Virus record (IMG/VR): IMGVR_UViG_3300017716_002598
Span: 1 to 45,744 of that record
Direction: 5' to 3' (one strand)
DNA: 45,744 nucleotides
Source: a virus
Made by a program: the position numbers and the translations under genes
Shown here: positions 9,289-39,550 of the stretch, in pieces
How the letters are laid out: every line of letters starts with the position of its first letter
How positions within the stretch are numbered: the first letter of the stretch is position 1
Notes under the pieces: generated by a model
Databases searched by the model: none
What the model was told of the DNA's origin: nothing
Seen by the model: only the letters and a program-made list of their open reading frames with translations

Positions 9289-9563
9289 GCCGGGGGCCTC
9301 CGTCGCGTCGTATTGGTGAAGTGCTGCTCAAACAGACGGGTCAGGTGCTTCACCGCCTCCTCCACCCGAATGAGGGCGTTCGAGGTTTCGCGGTGCGCCA
9401 TCGACTCCGCGTCGGCCTTGGCATTGGCGGCGGCGAGATCAGCGTGAAGCGTCACAAGCTGCTCCTTCTGATTGTTGACGCGGCCCTCCAGCCGGACCAG
9501 CCAGATGATGACGGTCACGGCAGCAGCGCCGAGCGTGACGATGGTTCCAGCGTCCAGCGTCAT
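9285..9563 (-). CDS. Membrane-anchored coiled-coil protein (92 aa); possible second holin, antiholin or lysis regulator
   Basis: ATG 9563 overlaps the upstream stop (TGATG). It has an N-terminal transmembrane helix (IVTLGAAAVTVIIWLV). The longer track ORF 9285..9845 overlaps the upstream gene and is Arg/Gly-rich junk. Confidence 0.6.
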   Translation of the reverse strand: MTLDAGTIVTLGAAAVTVIIWLVRLEGRVNNQKEQLVTLHADLAAANAKADAESMAHRETSNALIRVEEAVKHLTRLFEQHFTNTTRRRPPA

Positions 9564-10615
9564 CAGGCTTCTCGCAGGAAAGAAAGCGCCGAGACCAGCA
9601 TCCGCCCCCGGACGCTCTCGGCCTCGGGGATCACCGCCAGGTCCACGGTGGGGTCGGTGTTGAACTTGGCCTCGCACATATAAGCGTTGCCGGTCCAGTT
9701 CTTGACCCAGACCGCCGGGTTGCTCACGACGTATCGCAGCGGCGAGGTGTAGGCCGCGCCTTCGTGGCCGTCCTTGTTGGTGCCGCCGCCCATCATCAGC
9801 CAGTAGGACCAGAGGGGCTCGAGCGGGATGTCGACGTCCACCCATCCGCTATCGGCCACATATTCGGTAGTGTTTGGCGCATACAGACCGCCGCCGCCGA
9901 AGCCGAGCTCGTCGCTGATGCAGGTTGCCTGGTTGAACGCGTTGACGAACGCCACCGACCCGTTGCCCGCCGGGTCCGCGCCCCAGTTGTAGGTTCCGAT
10001 CCTGGGGGCACCAGGGATGCGCGTCTGGAAATGCTGGAGGATCTTGGTGTTCCGACCCATCGACATATTCTGGGCCCGCATCCGCCAGCGCATCACCCAG
10101 CCCGACAAGTCATCCGTGGCAGGGCGGCCGATGCTGTTGTTCAGGACCGAGAAGTCGGGATAGCCGAGGTTCGGCGGCGCGAAGGCGTCGCCGTGCGCCG
10201 AATAGGATTGCAGCAGCAGCCGGATCTGCGCGACCCGGCGGTGATTCTCGTCGTCCGCCATCTTGGGCGAGACGCTGCCGGTCCGGGCGCTCAACGCGCC
10301 GCCGGTCTTCGTATATCGGCCGTGCTTCGTGCTGTCGGTGCTGTAGCAATACAGGATGTCCCCGTTCGCCCTTGCCCCGATGTCCGCCACCATCTTGGCA
10401 TAGGCGTCGTTGCTACCGTCTGGCGTCGAGAAGTATTCGACCGTGGGAACCTCGGTCCCGATGTTGATCTCGATAGCCGAGACCGCATCGTCCGCCGTCA
10501 CCACGCGGCGGGGGTGCGCGATGTAGGAAAGCCCCCCCGGCGCGGGCGAATAGAAGAACTTTGCCACCTTCGCGTCGGTGTTAAAATCCGTCCGCCAGTG
10601 TTCAACCAGAGCCAT
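9563..10615 (-). CDS. Tail-associated hypothetical protein (350 aa)
   Basis: ATG 10615 is preceded by AGGAGG. The N-terminal extension in the track ORF (to 10939) overlaps the upstream gene and looks non-coding. Confidence 0.7.
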   Translation of the reverse strand: MALVEHWRTDFNTDAKVAKFFYSPAPGGLSYIAHPRRVVTADDAVSAIEINIGTEVPTVEYFSTPDGSNDAYAKMVADIGARANGDILYCYSTDSTKHGRYTKTGGALSARTGSVSPKMADDENHRRVAQIRLLLQSYSAHGDAFAPPNLGYPDFSVLNNSIGRPATDDLSGWVMRWRMRAQNMSMGRNTKILQHFQTRIPGAPRIGTYNWGADPAGNGSVAFVNAFNQATCISDELGFGGGGLYAPNTTEYVADSGWVDVDIPLEPLWSYWLMMGGGTNKDGHEGAAYTSPLRYVVSNPAVWVKNWTGNAYMCEAKFNTDPTVDLAVIPEAESVRGRMLVSALSFLREA

Positions 10616-10625
10616 GCCAGGCCTC

Positions 10626-11816
10626 CTATTTGCTGAAGCGCGCGAGCGCGTAGATGCGGCTGTTGGCCATTGCGTAGAAGTCGGTCTGACTTGAAGCTGC
10701 GGCCTCGTCCGCCGGAACCCGGCGGTCAACCCTGACGAGGTAGAGCAGGCTCGACACGGGATCGCGGGCGATGACGCCGACGTCCCCCGCCAGCCAGCGC
10801 CCGGTCGCAACCTGGTCGACCGCGTTGAAGTCCCGGATCTGGAGATATTCAGCGTCGTTGAAGCCAACGATCTTGATGAGCATCCCGCCCTCTGCGGGGC
10901 GGTCTGCCGGGAACCTGACGTGAAGGTAGGTGTTCGCAAAGCTGTTGTTGGGCAGCGGGGTCAGCAGCGTGACGAGCAGTTTGGTCGGATCGCCTCCGTC
11001 CGCCACCGAGGTTCCGACTACATGGTAGGAGGGTGTCTTTGCCGGGACGAGGGCTTCGCTGGGGCTGACCGTGTAGTTGGTCATGACGAGGACGAACTTG
11101 TCGATGTCCGGCCTGTAGCGCATCAGCACGACCCCGTTGTCGCCCCAAGCCGGCACGGGAAGCAGGTCGGCCGTCGCGCTCATCAGGGGCTTGGCCCCGA
11201 TGCCGTCGATGTTGAGCGTGACGGTGCCCGAACTGTTCGACACCGCCATCGGGCAGAGGAACAGGTCGTTGATGTTGTAGGCCCCAAGGTTGCCATACTG
11301 GGTGGTCGTGACGATGGCGTTGGCGGTTGATGCGCCCGTCCTGAAAATATAGGCGAACCGGCCGTCCTGGCTCAGGTTGTTCGGGTAGACCAGAAAGTAG
11401 ACGCCGCTCGCCGCCGCATACTTGAGGAGGGCGAACTGGCCGGCGATCAGGGAGTTTGCCAGCAGGGATATGCCGGACGCGGCACGAACGGGGCGCGCGA
11501 TCCCGCCTCCGACGTCTGGAACGGTCAGGGTCACGGCCCCGGTGTTGTTGGCGGTGATCGGCAGAAGCAGCAGCTGGTCGGCCGCCCCGCCCACGATTGG
11601 CGTTCCCGTCACGGGGCTGCTCACCAGGGCGTTGGCCGTCCCCGTGGGCGTGTTGAGCGGCACAAGATACCGGACGGCCCCGACAGCCGTTGCCGCTGAC
11701 GCCGCCGCCGCCGCCGCGCTCGCAGCCGCGGCAGAGACCAAGGGGGCCAGCAACGCCGTGCCGGAAACCTCGACGGCAACCGCGTTGTTGACGACGGAAA
11801 TTTCGGCAATAGCCAT
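10626..11816 (-). CDS. Tail fibre protein
   Basis: The N-terminus is Ala-rich. Two related modules are present (NTGAVTLTVPDVGGGIARPV...YFLV and SSGTVTLNIDGIGAKPL...KFVLV). It lies in the fibre gene neighbourhood. Confidence 0.6.
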   Translation of the reverse strand: MAIAEISVVNNAVAVEVSGTALLAPLVSAAAASAAAAAASAATAVGAVRYLVPLNTPTGTANALVSSPVTGTPIVGGAADQLLLLPITANNTGAVTLTVPDVGGGIARPVRAASGISLLANSLIAGQFALLKYAAASGVYFLVYPNNLSQDGRFAYIFRTGASTANAIVTTTQYGNLGAYNINDLFLCPMAVSNSSGTVTLNIDGIGAKPLMSATADLLPVPAWGDNGVVLMRYRPDIDKFVLVMTNYTVSPSEALVPAKTPSYHVVGTSVADGGDPTKLLVTLLTPLPNNSFANTYLHVRFPADRPAEGGMLIKIVGFNDAEYLQIRDFNAVDQVATGRWLAGDVGVIARDPVSSLLYLVRVDRRVPADEAAASSQTDFYAMANSRIYALARFSK

Positions 11817-26742: not shown

Positions 26743-27246
26743 TTAGGACGCGAGCCAGTCCGGCGTCGGGCGTCCGAGGAGGTCGGCGGTCCAGCCGCTC
26801 ATTGAGCGGGCGCGGTCGCCGATGGCGGGGAGGGCTTGCCGCCAGCCGGCGCGGAGGATTTCGGCGGACCGCCAAGGCCAGGGCTCGGTGATGTGCCGGG
26901 CCTGCTCATCCATCGGGACGCCGCAGAGGACGGCGCGGTCATATCCGAGATCGACCAGCGCGACCTTGAGGGCGAACAGGCCGGAGGAGCCGGAGCGATC
27001 CTGGCCGGGGAAGGCCCAGCCGTGGGTGAAGACTTGGGGAGCAGGGGGGTAGCCTTTGGATGCCCGGCGCTCGGCCCATCCGGGCCAGAGATCGGGGTGA
27101 AGGGTTGCCGCCGCGTCTATGGGGCCCGGCCAGTCGGCGGCGATATCGTTGCAGGCGACGATCCCGTCCGCCTCGGTTAGCGCCAGTGCGGCCTCGACGT
27201 CATCCCAGACAGTCGTGGCACCGCCCAGCACAAGGGCGAGGGTCAC
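26743..27246 (-). CDS. Uncharacterised Rossmann-like protein (167 aa) inserted between portal and scaffold
   Basis: The GTG start overlaps the portal stop. The pattern LVLGGA...DGIVACND...GSSGLFALKVALVDLGYDRAVLCGVPMD loosely recalls DUF115/MptE-like folds. This is a weak, by-eye call. Confidence 0.5.
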   Translation of the reverse strand: MTLALVLGGATTVWDDVEAALALTEADGIVACNDIAADWPGPIDAAATLHPDLWPGWAERRASKGYPPAPQVFTHGWAFPGQDRSGSSGLFALKVALVDLGYDRAVLCGVPMDEQARHITEPWPWRSAEILRAGWRQALPAIGDRARSMSGWTADLLGRPTPDWLAS

Positions 27247-28697: not shown

Positions 28698-30269
28698 TTA
28701 CAGGCGCAGGGGGGCGACGGTGGCAGGCGCGGGGCCCAGCGCCAGTTCGTTGAAGGCGTCGGCCGCGGCGTCGACCCGGTCGTCGTGGGCCCCGGCCGGG
28801 AAGCCGCAAAGCTCGTCGACGAAGGTCTCGATCCATGCGTCCCGGTCGGGATCGCCGGTTGCCAGGATATAGACGTTCCCGGCCTCGGCTTGGGTCGCCA
28901 AGGCCAGCGCCCGGGTTTCCTTGGAGCCGGTCGGGCGCTCGACCTTGACCGCGTAGCCGGGGAGCATCTTGACGAGGGTCTGGACGTAGCCCTTGCCGGC
29001 CGCGCCGGGGTCTTGGGGGAGGCGGATGATCACGTCCGGGGTATCGGCCGCCGCGGTCAGTTTCAGTTGGGCTTCGAGGTTGGCCGGCGACCACTGGCCC
29101 GCCCGGCAGTCCGTGAAATAGAAGGTTGCGGCCTCGCCGTTGCCGACCTTGGTGCAACGGACGCCCGCGCTCGGGTCGCCCCCGCCTTCGGTCGCCCCGA
29201 TATCCCAAGCCCGGACCGTGCGGCGTGTCCCGGCGGGCAGGGTGTTGGCGATCTTGAACCACGACCGCTGGAATAGGCCGCCATCGCGCGGCGCGGGCCG
29301 CTGCTGATACTGCCCCGCCCAGGCATAGGCGCCCTTGCCCCTCTTGAGCGTCTCGACCTCGGCGGCCGGGAAGCGTTCGGGGAACAGGAGCTCGCCCTCG
29401 ATCCGCCGGGGATCCTCAAAGAACAGGGCCCCGTTGACGTAGGTGCGGCAGGGGCCGGCGGTTTGTTTGCCGTCCGCCCCGATCCGCGCCGCCTCGTATT
29501 CCATCGGCAGGTTGAGGTGGACGAACCCGATCTCGAGGCCCATCGCCACGGCCGCCACGTCCTTCGCGTGAAGGCGCTGCATGATGATCACGATGGCGCT
29601 GGTCTGCACGTCGTTGAGGCGGTCGGTGATTCCCTCGCGGAAAATCCGGGTCGCCGTCTCGCGCTCGACCTCCGACTCCGCCGTCTCGGTAGAGTGCGGG
29701 TCGTCGATCTTGACCCTATCGGCCCGGCCCCCGGTCATGGAGCTGAACGGGCGGGCCTCCGAGAAGCCGTTGGCCGTGTTCTCGAATTTGCCCTTGGCGT
29801 TCTGGTCGCCGCGGAGGGCCAGCGGCCAGAGGGCTTGAAACTTCTCGCTCTCGACCAGACGCCGGAGTTTGAGGTTATCGCGAAGCACGTTCGCTTGGCT
29901 GTAGCTGGTCGCCAGGACTTGCAGATGGGCCGCGCCTTGCGGTCCCCACTCCCAAGCGGTCCAGAAGACCAGCAGGAGAGACTTCATCATCCCCGGGGGG
30001 ACGGTGATCAGGAGCCGCTTGATCTCCCCGCGCGAAACCGCCTCGAGGTGGGCGCACATCGCCCGGAGCGCCCAGCCCCCTACGAACGGTCGCGCCGGCT
30101 CCAAGGTGTGCCAGAACTCGGCGATGAACCCGTAGAGCGGCCGGCAACCGGAGACGATTTCCGACCGCTGCGTCTCAACCCGGTGGCGATCCGCCCGGGC
30201 CTGCTTCTCCCGCAAGGCGGCGAGGAGCCGCTCCCGGTCAGTCCTCGTCAGCGGGCGCGTCATCCGCAT
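28698..30269 (-). CDS. terL: Terminase large subunit
   Basis: The ATPase region reads KSLLLVFWTAWEW...VKIDDPH. The nuclease C-terminus reads AWDIGATEGGGDPSA...GAHDDRVDAAADAF. Confidence 0.9.
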   Translation of the reverse strand: MRMTRPLTRTDRERLLAALREKQARADRHRVETQRSEIVSGCRPLYGFIAEFWHTLEPARPFVGGWALRAMCAHLEAVSRGEIKRLLITVPPGMMKSLLLVFWTAWEWGPQGAAHLQVLATSYSQANVLRDNLKLRRLVESEKFQALWPLALRGDQNAKGKFENTANGFSEARPFSSMTGGRADRVKIDDPHSTETAESEVERETATRIFREGITDRLNDVQTSAIVIIMQRLHAKDVAAVAMGLEIGFVHLNLPMEYEAARIGADGKQTAGPCRTYVNGALFFEDPRRIEGELLFPERFPAAEVETLKRGKGAYAWAGQYQQRPAPRDGGLFQRSWFKIANTLPAGTRRTVRAWDIGATEGGGDPSAGVRCTKVGNGEAATFYFTDCRAGQWSPANLEAQLKLTAAADTPDVIIRLPQDPGAAGKGYVQTLVKMLPGYAVKVERPTGSKETRALALATQAEAGNVYILATGDPDRDAWIETFVDELCGFPAGAHDDRVDAAADAFNELALGPAPATVAPLRL

Positions 30270-30711
30270 CCCCGCTCAAGGTGGCGATCTCCGCCGCGAG
30301 CTCTTCGTCCGAGAGGTGCGAGAACGTATGCGCCACGCGTTGAACCGGGGCCGTCTTCGGGGCCATCCGAGCCGCGGCCCACTTCAAGGCGTCGAGGTAA
30401 ACGCGCGCGCCGGCCGGGTCGATCTTGTGACCGTTGACCGATTGGCCGAGCGCCGCAGCCTTGGTGACGGTCAGCCCGTCCTCTTGCAGCGTCTCGGCCC
30501 GTTCCTCGCGCGCGCTCGCGTATTGTTGGCGGCGGCCCTCGTCTTGATTGATCCAGGTGTGCGCCGACGACGGGTCGATCCCAAGTTTGCGACAGGCGGC
30601 ACGAAGCGACTTCCCGGAGCCGATGATCGCCATCATGGGGGCGAGGTCTTCGGCGGTCGGGCGGCGCTTGCCTTCCTCCGCGGCGTCCTGGACTTCGTTG
30701 TTCTCGCTCAT
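30238..30711 (-). CDS. terS: Terminase small subunit
   Basis: An HTH region (SLRAACRKLGIDPSSAHTWI...YASAREERAE) lies directly upstream of terL and overlaps it. Confidence 0.75.
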   Translation of the reverse strand: MSENNEVQDAAEEGKRRPTAEDLAPMMAIIGSGKSLRAACRKLGIDPSSAHTWINQDEGRRQQYASAREERAETLQEDGLTVTKAAALGQSVNGHKIDPAGARVYLDALKWAAARMAPKTAPVQRVAHTFSHLSDEELAAEIATLSGDADDAPADED

Positions 30712-31625
30712 GCGACCTTGACGAGCCTCATTCCGTATTCGTTGGGGGCGGGGTCGAGGTTGAGGTCGGGGCGGCGGATCAGGCGTTGGCGCTTGAACCG
30801 GGAATAGTCGACGTGATGGTGAACCCGGCGATAGCGGAAGATCACCTCCGCGACGTCGGGATGAACGGCCGCCAGCATCTTCGACTTAGCGACCGTGCCC
30901 GTGTCCGCGTATTTCTCGCCGGCCCGGACCGTCCCCTCGGCGTGGTAGAACTCCGCAGTGTTCCCCCCCGGTAGCTTCTGGGTCTCCATCTTCTCTTGCA
31001 GGAAGGCGTTGAACTGGATCGTGCACCAGCCGGCCTTGAGCATATCGAGCGAGAGGATCGTGTCCTCGTTGTATCGGCCGCGCCAGCGGAAGGGGGCGTC
31101 GTTGCGGATCAGGTTGCAGGAATAGATGCGGGTGTTCGCGACGAAGGGCGGGCGCTTACATTTTCGCTCGGCGAACATGAAATAGTTGGGGCCGGCCATC
31201 GCGACGTTGAGATAGCGAAGGGTGAAGTCCTCCATCGCCGCCCAATAGCCGGGGCTAGTCGTCCTGACCTTGAGGTTATGGTTCCAGCGGAAGAACCAGA
31301 TGATGTTGTCATCCATCACCCAATGCCAGGCGTGGCCCGCGGCGATGGAGTGTTCCCAAGCGAAGTTGCGGGCCGGGCCGGGGCCGGTGCTTTTCGAGAG
31401 GCCGAGGTCGTCGCAGAGCTCGTAGCGATCCTTGAAGGAGAGATCGAGCGGGAGGACGGTCGCGAGGAGGTCCATTGACCGGATCGCGGTCTCGTATGCC
31501 TCGACCTCCTGGGGCTCAACGACAACGAAGTGGGGGACGCCCATCCGGGTTAGGGCCTTGCTCGTCACCATATAGGCGGAGCGGCCCTTCGAGACGATGT
31601 AGAGCGGGAAGCGGGGGTTATTCAT
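30708..31625 (-). CDS. GT-A-fold nucleotide-sugar transferase-like protein (TAGT-like?)
   Basis: The N-terminus is PLYIVSKGRS. The sequence GPGPARNFAWEHSIAAGHAWHWVMDDN matches the GT-A pattern ARN...A.G....hhhDD(D/N). It is coupled to ParB (8-nt overlap) and to terS (ATGA). Confidence 0.5.
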   Translation of the reverse strand: MNNPRFPLYIVSKGRSAYMVTSKALTRMGVPHFVVVEPQEVEAYETAIRSMDLLATVLPLDLSFKDRYELCDDLGLSKSTGPGPARNFAWEHSIAAGHAWHWVMDDNIIWFFRWNHNLKVRTTSPGYWAAMEDFTLRYLNVAMAGPNYFMFAERKCKRPPFVANTRIYSCNLIRNDAPFRWRGRYNEDTILSLDMLKAGWCTIQFNAFLQEKMETQKLPGGNTAEFYHAEGTVRAGEKYADTGTVAKSKMLAAVHPDVAEVIFRYRRVHHHVDYSRFKRQRLIRRPDLNLDPAPNEYGMRLVKVA

Positions 31626-32244
31626 ACCGCTTGTCGGCGTATCGCTCGATCTGGATTTCGGGATACCAGACGAAGCGGGTCTTCGACGTGATCGCGAACT
31701 CGGTCATGGTCGTGAAGGCGTCGACCGCGGCTTGGTCGGGAAAGTGAACGACGAGCGACCGGAACGCCTTTTTGTCGGTCTGGGAGAACTCCGGCATCCC
31801 TTGCCATTCGGCTTCGGCGTCGTTCTCGCCTTCCTCGCGCGGGAGGAGGAGGTTCTGAATCTCCCCCGCGTCGAAGCCGATCAGGTCCAGGTCATACCCG
31901 CCCTCGGCGAGCGCCTCGATTTCGGCACGGAGGGCGTCGTCATCCCATCCGGCGTTGAGGGCCAGCTTGTTGTCCGCGATCACATAGGCCCGGCGCTGGG
32001 CTTCGGAGAGGTGGTCGAGGACGAGGACCGGGACGGTTGCGAGCCCGAGGGATTGAGCGGCGAGAACCCGTCCGTGCCCGGCGATGATCCCGCCTTCGGC
32101 GTCGACGAGGACCGGGTTGGTAAACCCGAACTCGGTGATTGAGGCGGCGATCTGCGCGACCTGGGCCTCGGAGTGCGTCCGGGAGTTCCGGGCATAGGGC
32201 GTCAGGTCGGCAATCGGCCGCTGCTCGAGGTCTTTCGGGGTCAT
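31618..32244 (-). CDS. ParB/Srx-like N-terminal domain protein lacking the usual methyltransferase domain
   Basis: ParB-type motifs are present (LTPYARNSRTHSEAQVAQIAASI...IIAGHGRVLAA). The EWQGMPEF...VVHF......F linker is normally followed by an N6/N4 DNA methylase in phage ParB-methyltransferase fusions. Confidence 0.7.
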   Translation of the reverse strand: MTPKDLEQRPIADLTPYARNSRTHSEAQVAQIAASITEFGFTNPVLVDAEGGIIAGHGRVLAAQSLGLATVPVLVLDHLSEAQRRAYVIADNKLALNAGWDDDALRAEIEALAEGGYDLDLIGFDAGEIQNLLLPREEGENDAEAEWQGMPEFSQTDKKAFRSLVVHFPDQAAVDAFTTMTEFAITSKTRFVWYPEIQIERYADKRYE

Positions 32245-32564: not shown

Positions 32565-32598
32565 GCAAAAACGGCCCCGGCCGGTGAAGGCTGGGGCC
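32565..32598 (-). terminator. Intrinsic terminator between cassette B and the late leader
   Basis: Minus strand: GGCCCCAGCC-ttcacc-GGCCGGGGCC (one G-U pair) followed by GTTTTTG. Confidence 0.75.
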
Positions 32599-32651: not shown

Positions 32652-32870
32652 TCAATCCGTAGGGGGTCGGGGCGCACAGGACGCTAGTTCTTGCGCCCAC
32701 GCCGCCGGGGACAGCTTGAGGGCCATTAGGACCGCCCTCGCCGCAGGACCGGACGGCCCGACTGTGGCATAGTTCTGTGCGGTCTTCGGGCTGACCATGA
32801 GCCACCGGCCCGCAGCCTGCTGCGACAGGCCGAGGGGTGCGAGGGCGGCGCGGTATTCAGCGGGGGTCAT
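32652..32870 (-). CDS. XRE-type helix-turn-helix protein B4 (72 aa), last gene of cassette B
   Basis: MTPAEYRAALAPLGLSQQAAGRWLMVSPKTAQNYATVGPSGPAARAVLMAL fits the short XRE HTH pattern. ATG 32870 is ATGA-coupled to the upstream ORF. Confidence 0.6.
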   Translation of the reverse strand: MTPAEYRAALAPLGLSQQAAGRWLMVSPKTAQNYATVGPSGPAARAVLMALKLSPAAWAQELASCAPRPPTD

Positions 32871-33046
32871 TCGGGCAACTCCGAACAAAACACGATTTCC
32901 GCACCGGGCGCATAAATCGCGACAAGATCGCGGGCGGTTTCCTTCATGTCGGACCAGCACTCTCCGTCCACATCAAACTGACGACCATCCTCTAGGGTCA
33001 GCAGCGCCCATTTTGCCGTTTGCCGCTCAAGGTGAACCTCACGCAT
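32867..33046 (-). CDS. Hypothetical small protein B3 (59 aa)
   Basis: ATG 33046 is preferred over 33097, which would give a long overlap. No similarity recognised. Confidence 0.5.
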   Translation of the reverse strand: MREVHLERQTAKWALLTLEDGRQFDVDGECWSDMKETARDLVAIYAPGAEIVFCSELPE

Positions 33047-33275
33047 GAACGTTGCGTCCCGTTTCAACAAAATGCCGAGCGTTGAGCGCCGAAGCATATT
33101 CCTTGCGAAGCTGCGCCAGACGACGCTCCTTGCGGGATTCTTTGTCGTCCGACGCCTTCACGGCTTCCGCTTGCTGCACGATACCGGCCATAACAGCGGT
33201 CCAATCGGTCTTGGCAAGCGCGCGGCGCTGGACCTTTCCCTTAGCAGCGTCCGAAAGGTCAATGTATCGGGCCAT
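33039..33275 (-). CDS. Hypothetical small protein B2 (78 aa)
   Basis: The protein is charged and helical. It is preceded by AGGAAACAGACAG directly before the ATG. No similarity recognised. Confidence 0.6.
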   Translation of the reverse strand: MARYIDLSDAAKGKVQRRALAKTDWTAVMAGIVQQAEAVKASDDKESRKERRLAQLRKEYASALNARHFVETGRNVHA

Positions 33276-33324
33276 CTGTCTGTTTCCTGAAGGATGGAGA
33301 GGCGGGGCCGAAGCCCCTGCCGGG

Positions 33325-33585
33325 TTAGTCAGCCATCGCGCGTTGGTAAGCGTAGGCTTGCGAACCCTCTAGGTCGCGAACGATGCGGGCGAGACCGGGC
33401 ATCGTCGGACCGTCAGAACCGCAAAAGTATGTTTTACCGGCGACAGACCGGAGCATCAAATGAATGTCGGGCGAGGTCGGCGGCCCGGCCCAGTTTGTGC
33501 AATGAATGAGAACGCCGACGCAGGAGCCGTCTTGCATCAGGGCCGATTCTTCGGCGTTCAGGGGGATGGCGTTATAGCTGGTCAT
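33325..33585 (-). CDS. Hypothetical small protein B1 (86 aa)
   Basis: Preceded by the same GGAAACAGACAG 12-mer before the ATG. No similarity recognised. Confidence 0.6.
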   Translation of the reverse strand: MTSYNAIPLNAEESALMQDGSCVGVLIHCTNWAGPPTSPDIHLMLRSVAGKTYFCGSDGPTMPGLARIVRDLEGSQAYAYQRAMAD

Positions 33586-33646
33586 CTGTCTGTTTCCGTC
33601 CGGCTAGTGCTTGATTGCCCTGCGCCGATGAAGTGACCCTAAGCAC

Positions 33647-33689
33647 ATTTTACGCAGGTCGCAATAGGCGGTTGCGTATTATTTACGCA
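33647..33689 (-). promoter_or_regulatory. Candidate promoter of cassette B, with the same box geometry as cassette A
   Basis: Minus strand: TGCGTAAATA (33689..33680), 4 nt, GCAACC, 17 nt, TAAAAT (33652..33647). The inverted repeat TACGCA-N16-TGCGTA lies at 33651-33678. The ATG is 61 nt downstream. Confidence 0.5.
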
Positions 33690-33749
33690 GCGGACAAGCG
33701 GGAGGACAACCTGTCCGCCACTGTCCCCCCGTTTTGTCCCGGCGTCCCG

Positions 33750-38092: not shown

Positions 38093-38289
38093 GTCCCGCC
38101 CCGATCCAGCCGCTCGGTCACCACTTCCCCATTTGAGCGCCAGACGCGCCAGCGGCCCGGCTTGCAGACCCGGTCGACGCGATGTTCTGCGACCGCGCGC
38201 TGGGCCTTCCTGAGCTCGAGCGCGTCCGGCCCGTAGGCATGACAGAACAGGCAGTCATGGATCATCTCGACCAACTCCCTCCACATCAC
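38089..38289 (-). CDS. Hypothetical small Cys-containing protein (66 aa)
   Basis: CLFCH...C suggests a possible metal site. The gene is ATGA-coupled to the GcrA-like gene. Confidence 0.55.
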   Translation of the reverse strand: MMWRELVEMIHDCLFCHAYGPDALELRKAQRAVAEHRVDRVCKPGRWRVWRSNGEVVTERLDRGGT

Positions 38290-39038
38290 GCGGCCTCCGC
38301 GCGGGCTTCGTCCCAGATCGTCCGCTCGGTTTCCCGGCGGTTCGGCCGGTCCCTTTCGATCCGCTCGCTACGCGTGAAGAAGCTCGCGGCCCCGGTCGAT
38401 TGACCTTTGAAGCGCCGGGCCCCGTCCGTTCCGACCGCGTGATGGCCAGCGCACCAGCCCCGGGCCAGAACCGGGTTGCAGCAGGAGAGCGCGGACATCC
38501 CCTCGCCGATCAGCCAAGTGCATTCACCGAACTTGCGGCCGTCCATCCAAGGGCGGGCGTTCGGGCTTTCAATGCTGGCCAAGGTAACCCGCACCGGCTC
38601 GGGCGCGGCGGCGGGCTTGCCTCTGTCGTTTGCCGGCTGGGGGAGGTTGCCGAACACCAGCGCGGGCTTGTTCCGCGGGGCCCTGATCTTCGGCGGCGCG
38701 GGGAGCCTGGCGGGCTTGGATGCCGGCTTCCGGGCGCTCGCCATCCAGCCCATGCGGTGAGCCTTGCCGATGATCGTGTTTCTGGTCGCCCCGTGGCCAA
38801 GGATGGCCGCGACCTCGGCCGCGCTCTTGCCCTCGTCGATGTAGAGCCTTCGCGCATCCTCCACCCGCGTCGGCGTCCAGAAGGCACCGAGGCGCGCCGG
38901 GAGGCCGAGGCGGATCCGCAGCTTGTCCATCGTCGATTGGCCGATCTTGAACAGGACCAGTATCTCGGCGACGGTCACGCCCTCTTTCCAAAGGGCGGCG
39001 AAGCGGCGCTCCTCGGCGTCGGTAAAATGGACGGTCAT
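38286..39038 (-). CDS. gcrA: GcrA-family cell-cycle regulator homologue with a duplicated N-terminal HTH
   Basis: WTPTRVEDARRLYIDEGKSAAEVAAILGHGATRNTIIGKAHRMGW is the GcrA N-terminal signature. A second, degenerate copy precedes it. The C-terminal CTWLIGEG...CC...WCAGHHAV matches the GcrA C-terminal motif. Confidence 0.8.
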   Translation of the reverse strand: MTVHFTDAEERRFAALWKEGVTVAEILVLFKIGQSTMDKLRIRLGLPARLGAFWTPTRVEDARRLYIDEGKSAAEVAAILGHGATRNTIIGKAHRMGWMASARKPASKPARLPAPPKIRAPRNKPALVFGNLPQPANDRGKPAAAPEPVRVTLASIESPNARPWMDGRKFGECTWLIGEGMSALSCCNPVLARGWCAGHHAVGTDGARRFKGQSTGAASFFTRSERIERDRPNRRETERTIWDEARAEAA

Positions 39039-39040
39039 GG

Positions 39041-39550
39041 TCAGGCGCTCCGTTGAAAGTTGATGGGGTCCCAGCGGCCGGCCTGGGTCGGGTGGCGCAG
39101 GCGCAGGGCGCAGAGCCAGATCCCGAAGGCGTCGGCCTCGTCGGAACATGAGGGGGTGAAACCGTAGCGGCGGGCGGCGGCGAGCATCTGCTCCTTGTCT
39201 GCCCGGCCGGAGCCCGTGAGGGCCTTCTTGACTTGGGAGGTCGCAACCTCGGCGCACTCGATCCCAAGGCGGTGGCAGACCATCTCCGTGACCCCGGCCA
39301 TGCCTTGCAGCTTGCGGGTCGTCGCCATCTGGGTCTGGGCCGGGAGGATGGGAGCCTCAAAGATCAGGAGGCTCGGCTCGATCTCGCGGACCTTCGGCTC
39401 CAGCCAGTCCTGCCATGCACAAAGGAACCGGCCGACGTCGGGGCCGGTCGAGGGCATACGGACGTGGCCGAGCGTCGGAACCTCGCCGGTGTCGGCGGGG
39501 CCGAAGCAGAAGCCGGTCTGGGTTGCGAGATCGAGCGCGAGGGCGGTCAT
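39041..39550 (-). CDS. ruvC: RuvC-like Holliday junction resolvase
   Basis: Sequence features are LALDLATQTGFCFG, LLIFEAP and SDEADAFGIWLCA, which carry the catalytic acidic residues. The start gives a TGATG overlap. Confidence 0.8.
   Translation of the reverse strand: MTALALDLATQTGFCFGPADTGEVPTLGHVRMPSTGPDVGRFLCAWQDWLEPKVREIEPSLLIFEAPILPAQTQMATTRKLQGMAGVTEMVCHRLGIECAEVATSQVKKALTGSGRADKEQMLAAARRYGFTPSCSDEADAFGIWLCALRLRHPTQAGRWDPINFQRSA

Follow-up and report, generated by a model that had tools for sequence, protein, structure and literature searches.

What does a ParB-like protein do beside a glycosyltransferase (GT), directly ahead of the terminase genes of a phage? The question is raised by the virus record IMGVR_UViG_3300017716_002598, of which positions 1 to 45,744 (45,744 nucleotides; here called the window) were analyzed. 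On the minus strand, two overlapping genes encode a 208-aa protein, composed of a ParB/Srx N-terminal domain and a short tail domain that we call X, and a 305-aa enzyme assigned to the TAGT family of GT-A glycosyltransferases. We consider it probable that this locus (30708..32244) is a two-protein, three-module DNA-modification device whose cargo is a DNA glycosyltransferase. Two observations carry this reading: X and TAGT are paired far beyond chance, and sister phages carry other tails with other enzymes between identical breakpoints. The features on which the argument draws are the following.

31618..32244, minus strand: gene for the 208-aa ParB_N-X protein (open reading frame; Pfam PF02195 and PHROG ParB families; AlphaFold2 [AF2] model and Foldseek)
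31846..32244, minus strand: ParB/Srx N-terminal domain, residues 1-133, the shared "chassis" (identity to ParB-methylase fusions and to sister-phage ParBs)
31621..31818, minus strand: tail domain X, residues ~143-208, ~65 aa, without a Pfam or PHROG family (motif conservation and linkage to TAGT)
30708..31625, minus strand: gene for the 305-aa TAGT-family GT-A glycosyltransferase (open reading frame; PF20691 and phrog_842; AF2 model)
31618..31625, minus strand: 8-nt overlap, ATGAATAA, of the ParB stop and the TAGT start (sequence read)
30673..31861, minus strand: exchangeable cargo cassette of 1,189 nt, comprising the X tail and TAGT together with ~13 codons from the start of terS, the gene for the small terminase subunit (homology breakpoints)

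The ParB-like protein and the glycosyltransferase

Both open reading frames proposed in the first-pass annotation were confirmed on the minus strand, as were, by sequence, the 8-nt overlap between them and the ATGA coupling of the transferase gene to terS. The proposal of a ParB/Srx N-terminal domain also held. The 208-aa protein scored 29.4 bits against PF02195 (ParB_N; cut-off, 26.3 bits) and matched PHROG ParB families with an E value of 1e-56, and the structures closest to its AF2 model in Foldseek were CTP-type ParB, Noc, and KorB. These matches were driven by the N-domain: the lone alignment with a low root mean square deviation (6sdk_A, 2.2) covered 91 columns, and HMMER alignments spanned query residues ~4-85. 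In the HMMER alignment to Noc, R22 falls on the arginine of box I, and box II is GHGR in place of the GERR of canonical ParB; R22 and G56-H57-G58-R59-x-x-A are conserved. Most of the 120 best homologues listed are stand-alone ParB_N proteins with lengths of ~205-230 aa, which align over nearly the full query.

The 305-aa protein had been read as a GT-A transferase, possibly of the TAGT family, and it falls in that family. It matched PF20691 (TAGT) at 119.7 bits (cut-off, 27.5 bits; E value, 2.2e-34) over residues 6-220, corresponding to profile positions 1-204 of 205, and phrog_842 with an E value of 7.6e-38. Because its sequence matched no PDB sequence even at an E value of 10, structure prediction and Foldseek were needed. 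The AF2 model (predicted local distance difference test [pLDDT] score, 88.5) has a compact globular GT-A fold. Its best PDB matches were GT-A glycosyltransferases (E values of 7e-6 to 4e-4), and its BFVD matches were TAGT-domain phage proteins with template modeling scores of up to 0.84, the best of which (A0A6G6XN95) is an 890-aa protein. Judged from profile and model, the protein is thus a TAGT-family GT-A enzyme. The family is very large and well conserved, with >7,900 clusters of homologues; among the top 120 listed, most are ~65-80% identical and the best is 94% identical.

The TAGT motifs are K13-G-R15, R86-N87, D105-D106-N107, and E187-D188-T189, of which R86, D105-D106-N107, and E187-D188 are invariant in the alignment and T189 is nearly so. 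The motifs first reported as GT-A hallmarks (IVSKGRS, ARN, and VMDDN) do lie in invariant columns; their spacing, ARN-x7-AAG-x5-VMDDN, differs from the one originally quoted. The series R...DDN...EDT matches the motif R...DDD...EDY/F that has been described in phage DNA GT-A enzymes and in the JGT of trypanosomes (bioRxiv 10.1101/2023.12.21.572611), with variation at two positions (DDN and EDT). Elsewhere, a SNF2-type helicase is fused at the C terminus of one TAGT (L068:1901-4234), and a class I S-adenosylmethionine methyltransferase domain at that of another (L081:9110-10759).

Tail domain X and exchange of the cargo cassette

X is defined by the motif W-x-G-M-P-E-F ... VHF ... F ... T-x-K-T-K/R-x-x-W-F/Y-P, in which W147, M150, and P151 are invariant. 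It matched no PHROG family, and Pfam likewise assigns none to stand-alone X proteins. X lies directly upstream of TAGT in all 77 viral loci that have a TAGT homologue and upstream sequence, and upstream of or fused to TAGT in 149 of 152 assessable viral and genomic loci. The 163 loci surveyed comprise 103 with ParB_N-X and TAGT, 31 with X but no recognizable ParB_N, 15 X-TAGT fusions, 11 cut by a contig edge, and 3 without X. For a reverse test, viral loci were seeded by the back-translated W-x-G-M-P-E-F pattern alone; 115 were found, of which 111 were confirmed by a hidden Markov model of X and 109 were assessable. TAGT was downstream of or fused to X in 106 of these 109 loci, one of them a triple ParB_N-X-TAGT fusion, and a methylase domain occurred in the same open reading frame as X in none of the 111. 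X is thus a partner domain, as yet uncurated, of this TAGT subfamily.

The arrangement of X varies among phages. It forms the N terminus of TAGT in Aeromonas phage Aeh1 (p093), Vibrio phage 1.076.O, and Vibrio phage Kuja (gp032/gp033), and stand-alone X proteins of ~85 aa stand directly before TAGT in PolB-encoding phages, near the polymerase or clamp gene. In lytic phages, X and TAGT lie among replication genes, beside a DNA polymerase or clamp gene. Because one domain moves between two proteins, being found on ParB, alone, or fused to TAGT, X and TAGT are likely to work together.

These data bear on how the tail was first interpreted, namely, as a linker (EWQGMPEF...VVHF) that in many phage proteins leads into an N6/N4 DNA methylase. 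The ParB N-domain is indeed 63-69% identical over ~120 residues to the N-domains of ParB-N6/N4-methylase fusions. However, the region that it has in common with these fusions (P8625 gp03; AcaML1 gp24 and gp25) is limited to residues ~6-133, the X tail alone gave no tblastn match among 50,697 phage records, and the motif-seeded loci carried no methylase; the linker interpretation is therefore ruled out. The protein itself ends at residue 208, and its tail has no methylase similarity.

Comparison with sister phages showed that the cargo is exchanged at fixed breakpoints. Phage L180 is 82-93% identical to the window at the nucleotide level across the replication and packaging modules, and a related fragment, L185, is ~89-91% identical in both flanks of the slot, the matching region beginning upstream of the ParB gene and reaching into terS and the large terminase subunit gene (TerL). 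In both, homology ends at window position 31862 (ParB codon ~128) and resumes at 30672 (terS codon ~14). Between these breakpoints lie the following.

Window: X tail and TAGT
L180-L184: a different tail and a Mom-family gene (PF25680; phrog_1384, E value of 3e-42) overlapping the ParB stop
L185: a third tail and a DpdA-like gene (phrog_887, E value of 3e-28), with QueD, QueE, FolE, and a phosphoribosyltransferase

The N-domains of the sister ParBs are identical to that of the window at 119 of 130 positions (P0155, from the Mom-type phage) and 124 of 130 positions (P0140, from the DpdA type), that is, 92-95%. The ParB tail thus changes along with the downstream enzyme while the N-domain stays constant, and the start-stop overlap of ParB and enzyme genes is found in the window and the sister phages alike. 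Given the identical breakpoints and the different cargos, the N-domain is the constant part, and "tail plus DNA-modifying enzyme" is the exchangeable part. Mom and DpdA are established DNA-base-modification systems, and their presence in the same slot is the strongest argument that TAGT acts on DNA. At the cassette borders we found just short, chance-level repeats and no obvious recombination site; the role of homology arms seems to fall to the conserved coding sequences of ParB_N and terS. The original proposal, a ParB module whose methylase is replaced by a sugar transferase and which together with it modifies progeny DNA, is strongly supported by this comparative evidence, both the N-domain shared with methylase fusions and the replacement by Mom or DpdA.

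In Lactobacillus phage phi jlb1 and Rac-type Escherichia coli prophages, a fourth tail type pairs with TAGT-like proteins of a distant subfamily (22-26% identity), and the gene order is ParB, TAGT-like, terS, TerL. Overall, the module precedes three unrelated terminase types with their portal and capsid sets, and a TerL gene lies at most 5 kb downstream in 66 of 102 loci. In E. coli phage vB_EcoS-683R6 (L188:2205-3921) and E. coli strain L73 (L189:4001-5717), the order is trkG, ynaK (ParB/Srx), a gene for a 310-aa TAGT-like protein (WP_001204037.1), a small open reading frame, terS, and terL; the annotation of strain L73 treats ynaK as a truncated pseudogene. Of 5,426 complete E. coli genomes, 1,580 (~29%) have DNA matching ynaK and the TAGT-like gene, 889 of them with at least 80% coverage. 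A literature search, whose results were dominated by unrelated word matches, returned no account of ynaK function. In a prophage of Kaistia sp. MMO-174 (L002:5777-6004), a 75-aa gene of the Acb2/Tad1-hairpin family, an anti-CBASS/Thoeris sponge family, is inserted between ParB-X and TAGT; this insertion suggests that the slot may also collect other counter-defense genes.

The exchange also bears on whether the two genes belong together at all. The ParB-like protein could serve packaging or partition, by pac-site recognition or as a nuclease, and TAGT could be an unrelated moron in the same hot spot. Terminase-adjacent ParB-like genes are common, the region accepts insertions, as the Kaistia prophage illustrates, and many TAGTs have X without ParB_N. 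Nevertheless, we regard functional independence as very improbable: the tail follows the enzyme while the N-domain stays 92-95% identical, X is fused to TAGT itself in other phages, and in the window as in the sister phages the stop codon of the one gene overlaps the start codon of the next. Moreover, Pfam scans of the window proteins detected no ParA-type ATPase, and neither these scans nor the model revealed a helix-turn-helix (HTH) domain in the 208-aa protein. A partition ParB of the ParABS type has an HTH domain, a dimerization domain, and a ParA partner; the 208-aa protein has none of these and is not such a ParB.

The acceptor of the sugar and the genomic setting

In the reading that we favor, the ParB/Srx N-domain would be a generic, probably NTP-dependent DNA-engaging module reused for several DNA-modifying enzymes. 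The analogy is with two systems: DpdA requires ATP hydrolysis by the ParB-like DpdB (PMC10164549), and 5mYOX176 requires its cognate ParB on double-stranded DNA (PMC13229309). X may be an adaptor that recruits or activates the TAGT subfamily, the genomic link being observed and physical binding presumed. TAGT would take a host nucleotide-sugar and glycosylate phage DNA after replication, during expression of the late operon and terminase and before packaging, and the packaged genomes would resist restriction or other DNA-targeting defenses. For ParB-X/TAGT, we infer the DNA substrate, the sugar, and the protective role from this comparative picture.

Several points weigh against this reading. 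The DNA target of TAGT is assigned through guilt by association, and all characterized TAGT/GT-A DNA transferases need a hydroxymethyl or existing sugar acceptor (PMC13216743; 10.1101/2023.12.21.572611), which nothing detected in the window could make. The 208-aa protein ends after its 65-aa X tail, without the HTH and C-terminal dimerization domains that let canonical ParB load and close on DNA, and its use of a nucleotide is uncertain because box II is GHGR, not GERR. In the AF2 model, the X tail is of moderate quality (pLDDT scores of 52-91), and DSSP assigns it helices only. In the motif-seeded sample, X without a recognizable ParB_N (65 loci) was commoner than X with one (34 loci), which suggests that ParB is dispensable for many family members. 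In addition, protein O-GlcNAcylation has been reported for GREB1, which has a TAGT-like domain (PMC7968844).

The GREB1 report raises the question of whether the acceptor is DNA at all. The target of TAGT might be a polymer of the cell envelope or a protein (ParB itself, terminase, portal, or capsid), with X and ParB as substrate or regulator. The TAGT gene sits within the head/packaging operon, and the GT-A enzymes whose PDB folds best match the TAGT model are directed at proteins or glycans. In a 2023 preprint, the ~65% of GT-containing contigs without a 5mYOX or ThyS neighbor were put aside as not obviously linked to DNA modification and "less likely" to act in DNA hypermodification (10.1101/2023.12.21.572611), and the TagD/RfaE-like cytidylyltransferase gene that follows TAGT in some loci (see below) recalls envelope glycopolymer pathways. 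However, Mom, DpdA, or a fused DNA methylase occupies the same slot or follows the same ParB N-domain in relatives, a SNF2 helicase is fused to one TAGT, and X and TAGT lie among replication rather than structural genes in lytic phages. The module also travels with three unrelated terminase/portal/capsid sets and therefore has no constant structural partner, and TAGT itself is modeled with high confidence as a compact, globular GT-A fold. Non-DNA targets such as virion proteins or the cell envelope are accordingly disfavored, and we judge this explanation unlikely.

If the acceptor is in DNA, it could still be a classical one: TAGT would glycosylate 5-hydroxymethyl-cytosine or -uracil, or extend an existing sugar, on an acceptor made by a host enzyme or by a divergent phage 5mYOX or hydroxymethylase that was missed. 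The T2/T6 beta-glucosyl-HMC-alpha-glucosyltransferase and the 5mYOX-associated GT-A enzymes all work in this way (PMC13216743). Furthermore, GT, ParB, and terminase genes are often found together on 5mYOX contigs, and thousands of 5mYOX-like contigs carry no Pfam annotation, so that Pfam can miss a 5mYOX (PMC13229309); three window proteins of >190 aa are without annotation. Against this, scans of essentially all coding-like open reading frames of the 45.7-kb window with Pfam, PHROGs, or NCBIfam gave no match to TET/JBP, C5-methylase, thymidylate-synthase-like, or dCMP-hydroxymethylase families, nor did family scans of the window detect PF12851, another dioxygenase, or an alpha/beta-GT. The 12 distinct Pfam-annotated related contexts listed also contained no acceptor-making enzyme, save a C5-methylase fragment 2 kb away in one of them (L094).

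Comparison of the cargos speaks to the same point. The unannotated 263-aa and 197-aa proteins lie in a backbone common to the Mom-carrying sister phage, which has same-sized genes at the same places, and so are not TAGT-specific; since sisters with other cargos have this backbone in common, a TAGT-specific helper should lie inside the cassette. The TAGT cassette holds X and TAGT only, whereas the DpdA cargo brings its whole precursor pathway with it. Likewise, Aeh1 and phage 65 encode X-TAGT but are without genes 42 and 56 (PMC2993671). We consider the classical role quite unlikely.

Because the cargo is X and TAGT only and a hydroxymethylating enzyme was not detected, the acceptor probably resides in ordinary DNA. 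Two alternatives follow: a hydroxymethyl base is supplied from some cryptic source, or a canonical component of DNA serves as the acceptor. For the second alternative, we tentatively raise the possibility that X and TAGT, with ParB_N optional, attach a sugar directly to a canonical DNA component without a prior hydroxymethyl handle; the target could be an exocyclic amine or an oxygen of a normal base.

Three kinds of loci offer further observations on acceptor and donor. Vibrio phage Kuja (Ackermannviridae; L089:3581-6269) carries two tandem X-TAGT paralogues of 452 and 446 aa beside a "DNA end protector" gene. ViI-type Ackermannviridae make bases derived from 5-hydroxymethyldeoxyuridine (5hmdU), and the TAGT acceptor in Kuja could be hydroxymethyluracil (hmU). 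In a large PolB phage (L090:554-9543), X and TAGT are flanked on one side by a family B DNA polymerase gene and on the other by IMPDH/GMP-reductase-family and phosphoribosyltransferase-family genes, and a gene for a PP-loop ATPase is close by; such surroundings of purine metabolism might be relevant to the acceptor or the donor. Finally, a ~140-aa cytidylyltransferase-like gene (PF01467) accompanies TAGT in a minority of loci (L014:9208-9642 and 17 others, ~11% of the 163 surveyed), immediately following it in 10 of these. Its best matches, glycerol-3-phosphate cytidylyltransferase and RfaE domain II, were far below the cut-offs. The gene may make a special activated donor, and its addition in these loci hints that some hosts lack the sugar donor.

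The window as a whole is a temperate siphophage or prophage of high G+C content (GC; ~67%), with no close relative at the DNA level in the GenBank phage collection. It encodes an integrase, a DnaB helicase and its loader, a GcrA-like regulator, RecT with a PD-(D/E)XK nuclease, and lysis and tail genes, with the head/packaging module on the minus strand; a tRNA scan of the window found no genes. The order on that strand is ParB, TAGT, terS, TerL, portal, and the neighbors of the two genes of interest are as follows.

30708..30711, minus strand: ATGA overlap of the TAGT stop and the terS start (sequence read)
30238..30711, minus strand: terS, small terminase subunit, the right-hand anchor of the cassette slot (PF20901 Sf6_terminase, E value of 6e-14; phrog_1482)
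28698..30269, minus strand: TerL, large terminase subunit (Terminase_6C; phrog_38, E value of 1e-77)
32574..32591, minus strand: hairpin resembling a terminator, located upstream of the ParB gene and possibly marking an operon boundary (consensus scan, weak: 3 sites versus 3.6 expected)

The two genes had been described as the first of the late/packaging operon. In support of this description, terS, TerL, and portal follow on the same strand, and the ~400-nt gap that precedes the ParB gene, together with the hairpin, fits the start of a transcription unit there. The operon start is nevertheless unproven, because a scan upstream of the ParB gene found no sigma-70 promoter site and terminator-like sites are no commoner than in shuffled sequence. 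GC is lower over 31001-32000 (0.625, versus 0.67-0.69 in the flanks). A second stretch of lower GC (0.61), at 32655-33749 (~1.1 kb), is missing from L180; it lies between the gene for the conserved 263-aa protein and the ParB gene, holds three or four small open reading frames (76-102 aa, one HTH-like), and looks like a second variable spot beside the cassette.

Elsewhere in the window, 38286-39257 encodes a 323-aa protein with a GcrA cell-cycle-regulator domain at residues 127-193 after an N-terminal extension of ~125 aa; the sister phage counterpart is a GcrA protein of 250 aa. The GcrA domain suggests an alphaproteobacterial host, and a Caulobacteraceae metagenome-assembled genome (L117) has a related module. 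In the tail region, two long coding-like minus-strand open reading frames without a family match (9563-10939 and 10626-11816) overlap by ~314 nt as listed, and the downstream one probably has an internal true start. A comparison showed that the protein encoded at 26743..27246 is not homologous to the hexapeptide-repeat protein that the sister phage encodes in the corresponding position.

Relation to known systems and significance

A close parallel is the pairing of 5mYOX with a ParB (O'Toole et al., PNAS 2026, PMC13229309), in which a phage ParB-fold protein without an obvious DNA-binding domain lies beside a post-replicative DNA-modifying enzyme, is needed on double-stranded DNA, and is specific to its own enzyme, at loci that often include GT and terminase genes. 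In contrast, the enzyme here is a glycosyltransferase rather than a dioxygenase, and window scans detected no 5mYOX. The architecture differs as well: the 5mYOX-type ParB has an N-terminal domain and a C-terminal dimerization domain, whereas the window ParB has the N-domain and the ~65-aa X, which also occurs alone or fused to the enzyme.

In the DpdA/DpdB system (NAR 2023, PMC10164549), a ParB-fold NTPase is likewise required for a DNA-base-modifying enzyme, and the sister phage holds DpdA-like, QueD, QueE, and FolE genes in exactly this slot behind the same ParB N-domain. DpdB itself is larger, with a modeled homodimer, a DGQQR motif, and a helical C-domain, unlike the window ParB with its GHGR box II and X tail, and the chemistry of DpdA is base exchange as opposed to glycosyl transfer. 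The ParB-N6/N4 methyltransferase fusions of Verrucomicrobia phage P8625 (gp03) and AcaML1 (gp24/gp25) have the related N-domain described above, and in P8625 the fusion gene also lies just upstream of the terminase genes; their cargo, however, is covalently fused and a methylase, and they lack X.

On the enzyme side, the T2/T6 beta-glucosyl-HMC-alpha-glucosyltransferase and the 5mYOX-associated (JGT-like) GT-A enzymes have in common with the window TAGT the Pfam family, the GT-A fold, and R...DD(D/N)...ED. They differ in acting on 5hmC or its glucose, made via gene 42 or via a methylase and TET, neither of which was detected here. The T6-type TAGTs are too distant for tblastn to find from the window TAGT, and no X partner has been described for T2/T6-type enzymes, although no search was made for one. 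Mom of phage Mu resembles the proposed system in being late expressed and anti-restriction and in modifying DNA bases after replication, and a Mom-family gene replaces X and TAGT in the closest sister phage. Mom belongs to an unrelated protein family whose fold and chemistry are unlike those of TAGT, and it is accompanied by a different ParB tail.

The hypothesis linking TAGT and ParB goes back to Iyer et al. 2013, as quoted in PMC8256090 and PMC13229309, and ParB genes beside GT and terminase genes have been mentioned in passing. The X domain, its near-obligate partnership with this TAGT subfamily, the ParB N-domain shared with methylase fusions, and the three-way exchange at identical breakpoints were not described in the literature that we searched.

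These findings give context to orphan TAGTs: solitary TAGT homologues were counted in 288 of 753 GT-encoding phage genomes, their function left undefined (2026 study, PMC13216743). Such enzymes now come with a near-obligate small partner, X, with a ParB module for delivery that is shared with other systems, and with a slot occupied in other phages by Mom, DpdA, or a methylase. DNA modification by solitary TAGTs and the identity of the acceptor become directly testable, for which phages Aeh1, 65, and phiAS5, Vibrio phage 1.076.O, the prophages of Pantoea stewartii ATCC 8199 and Chryseobacterium gambrini DSM 18014, and Rac-type E. coli prophages are candidates. If our reading is true, a fourth and a fifth class would join the DNA-modifying enzymes that have a ParB-fold protein as accessory factor. 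Should the acceptor be a canonical base, the chemistry would be a new DNA modification, relevant to how phages resist restriction and CRISPR and to tools for enzymatic DNA labeling. Such a canonical-base system would be widespread in temperate and lytic phages, with a distant ParB(ynaK)-TAGT-like version in more than a quarter of complete E. coli genomes.

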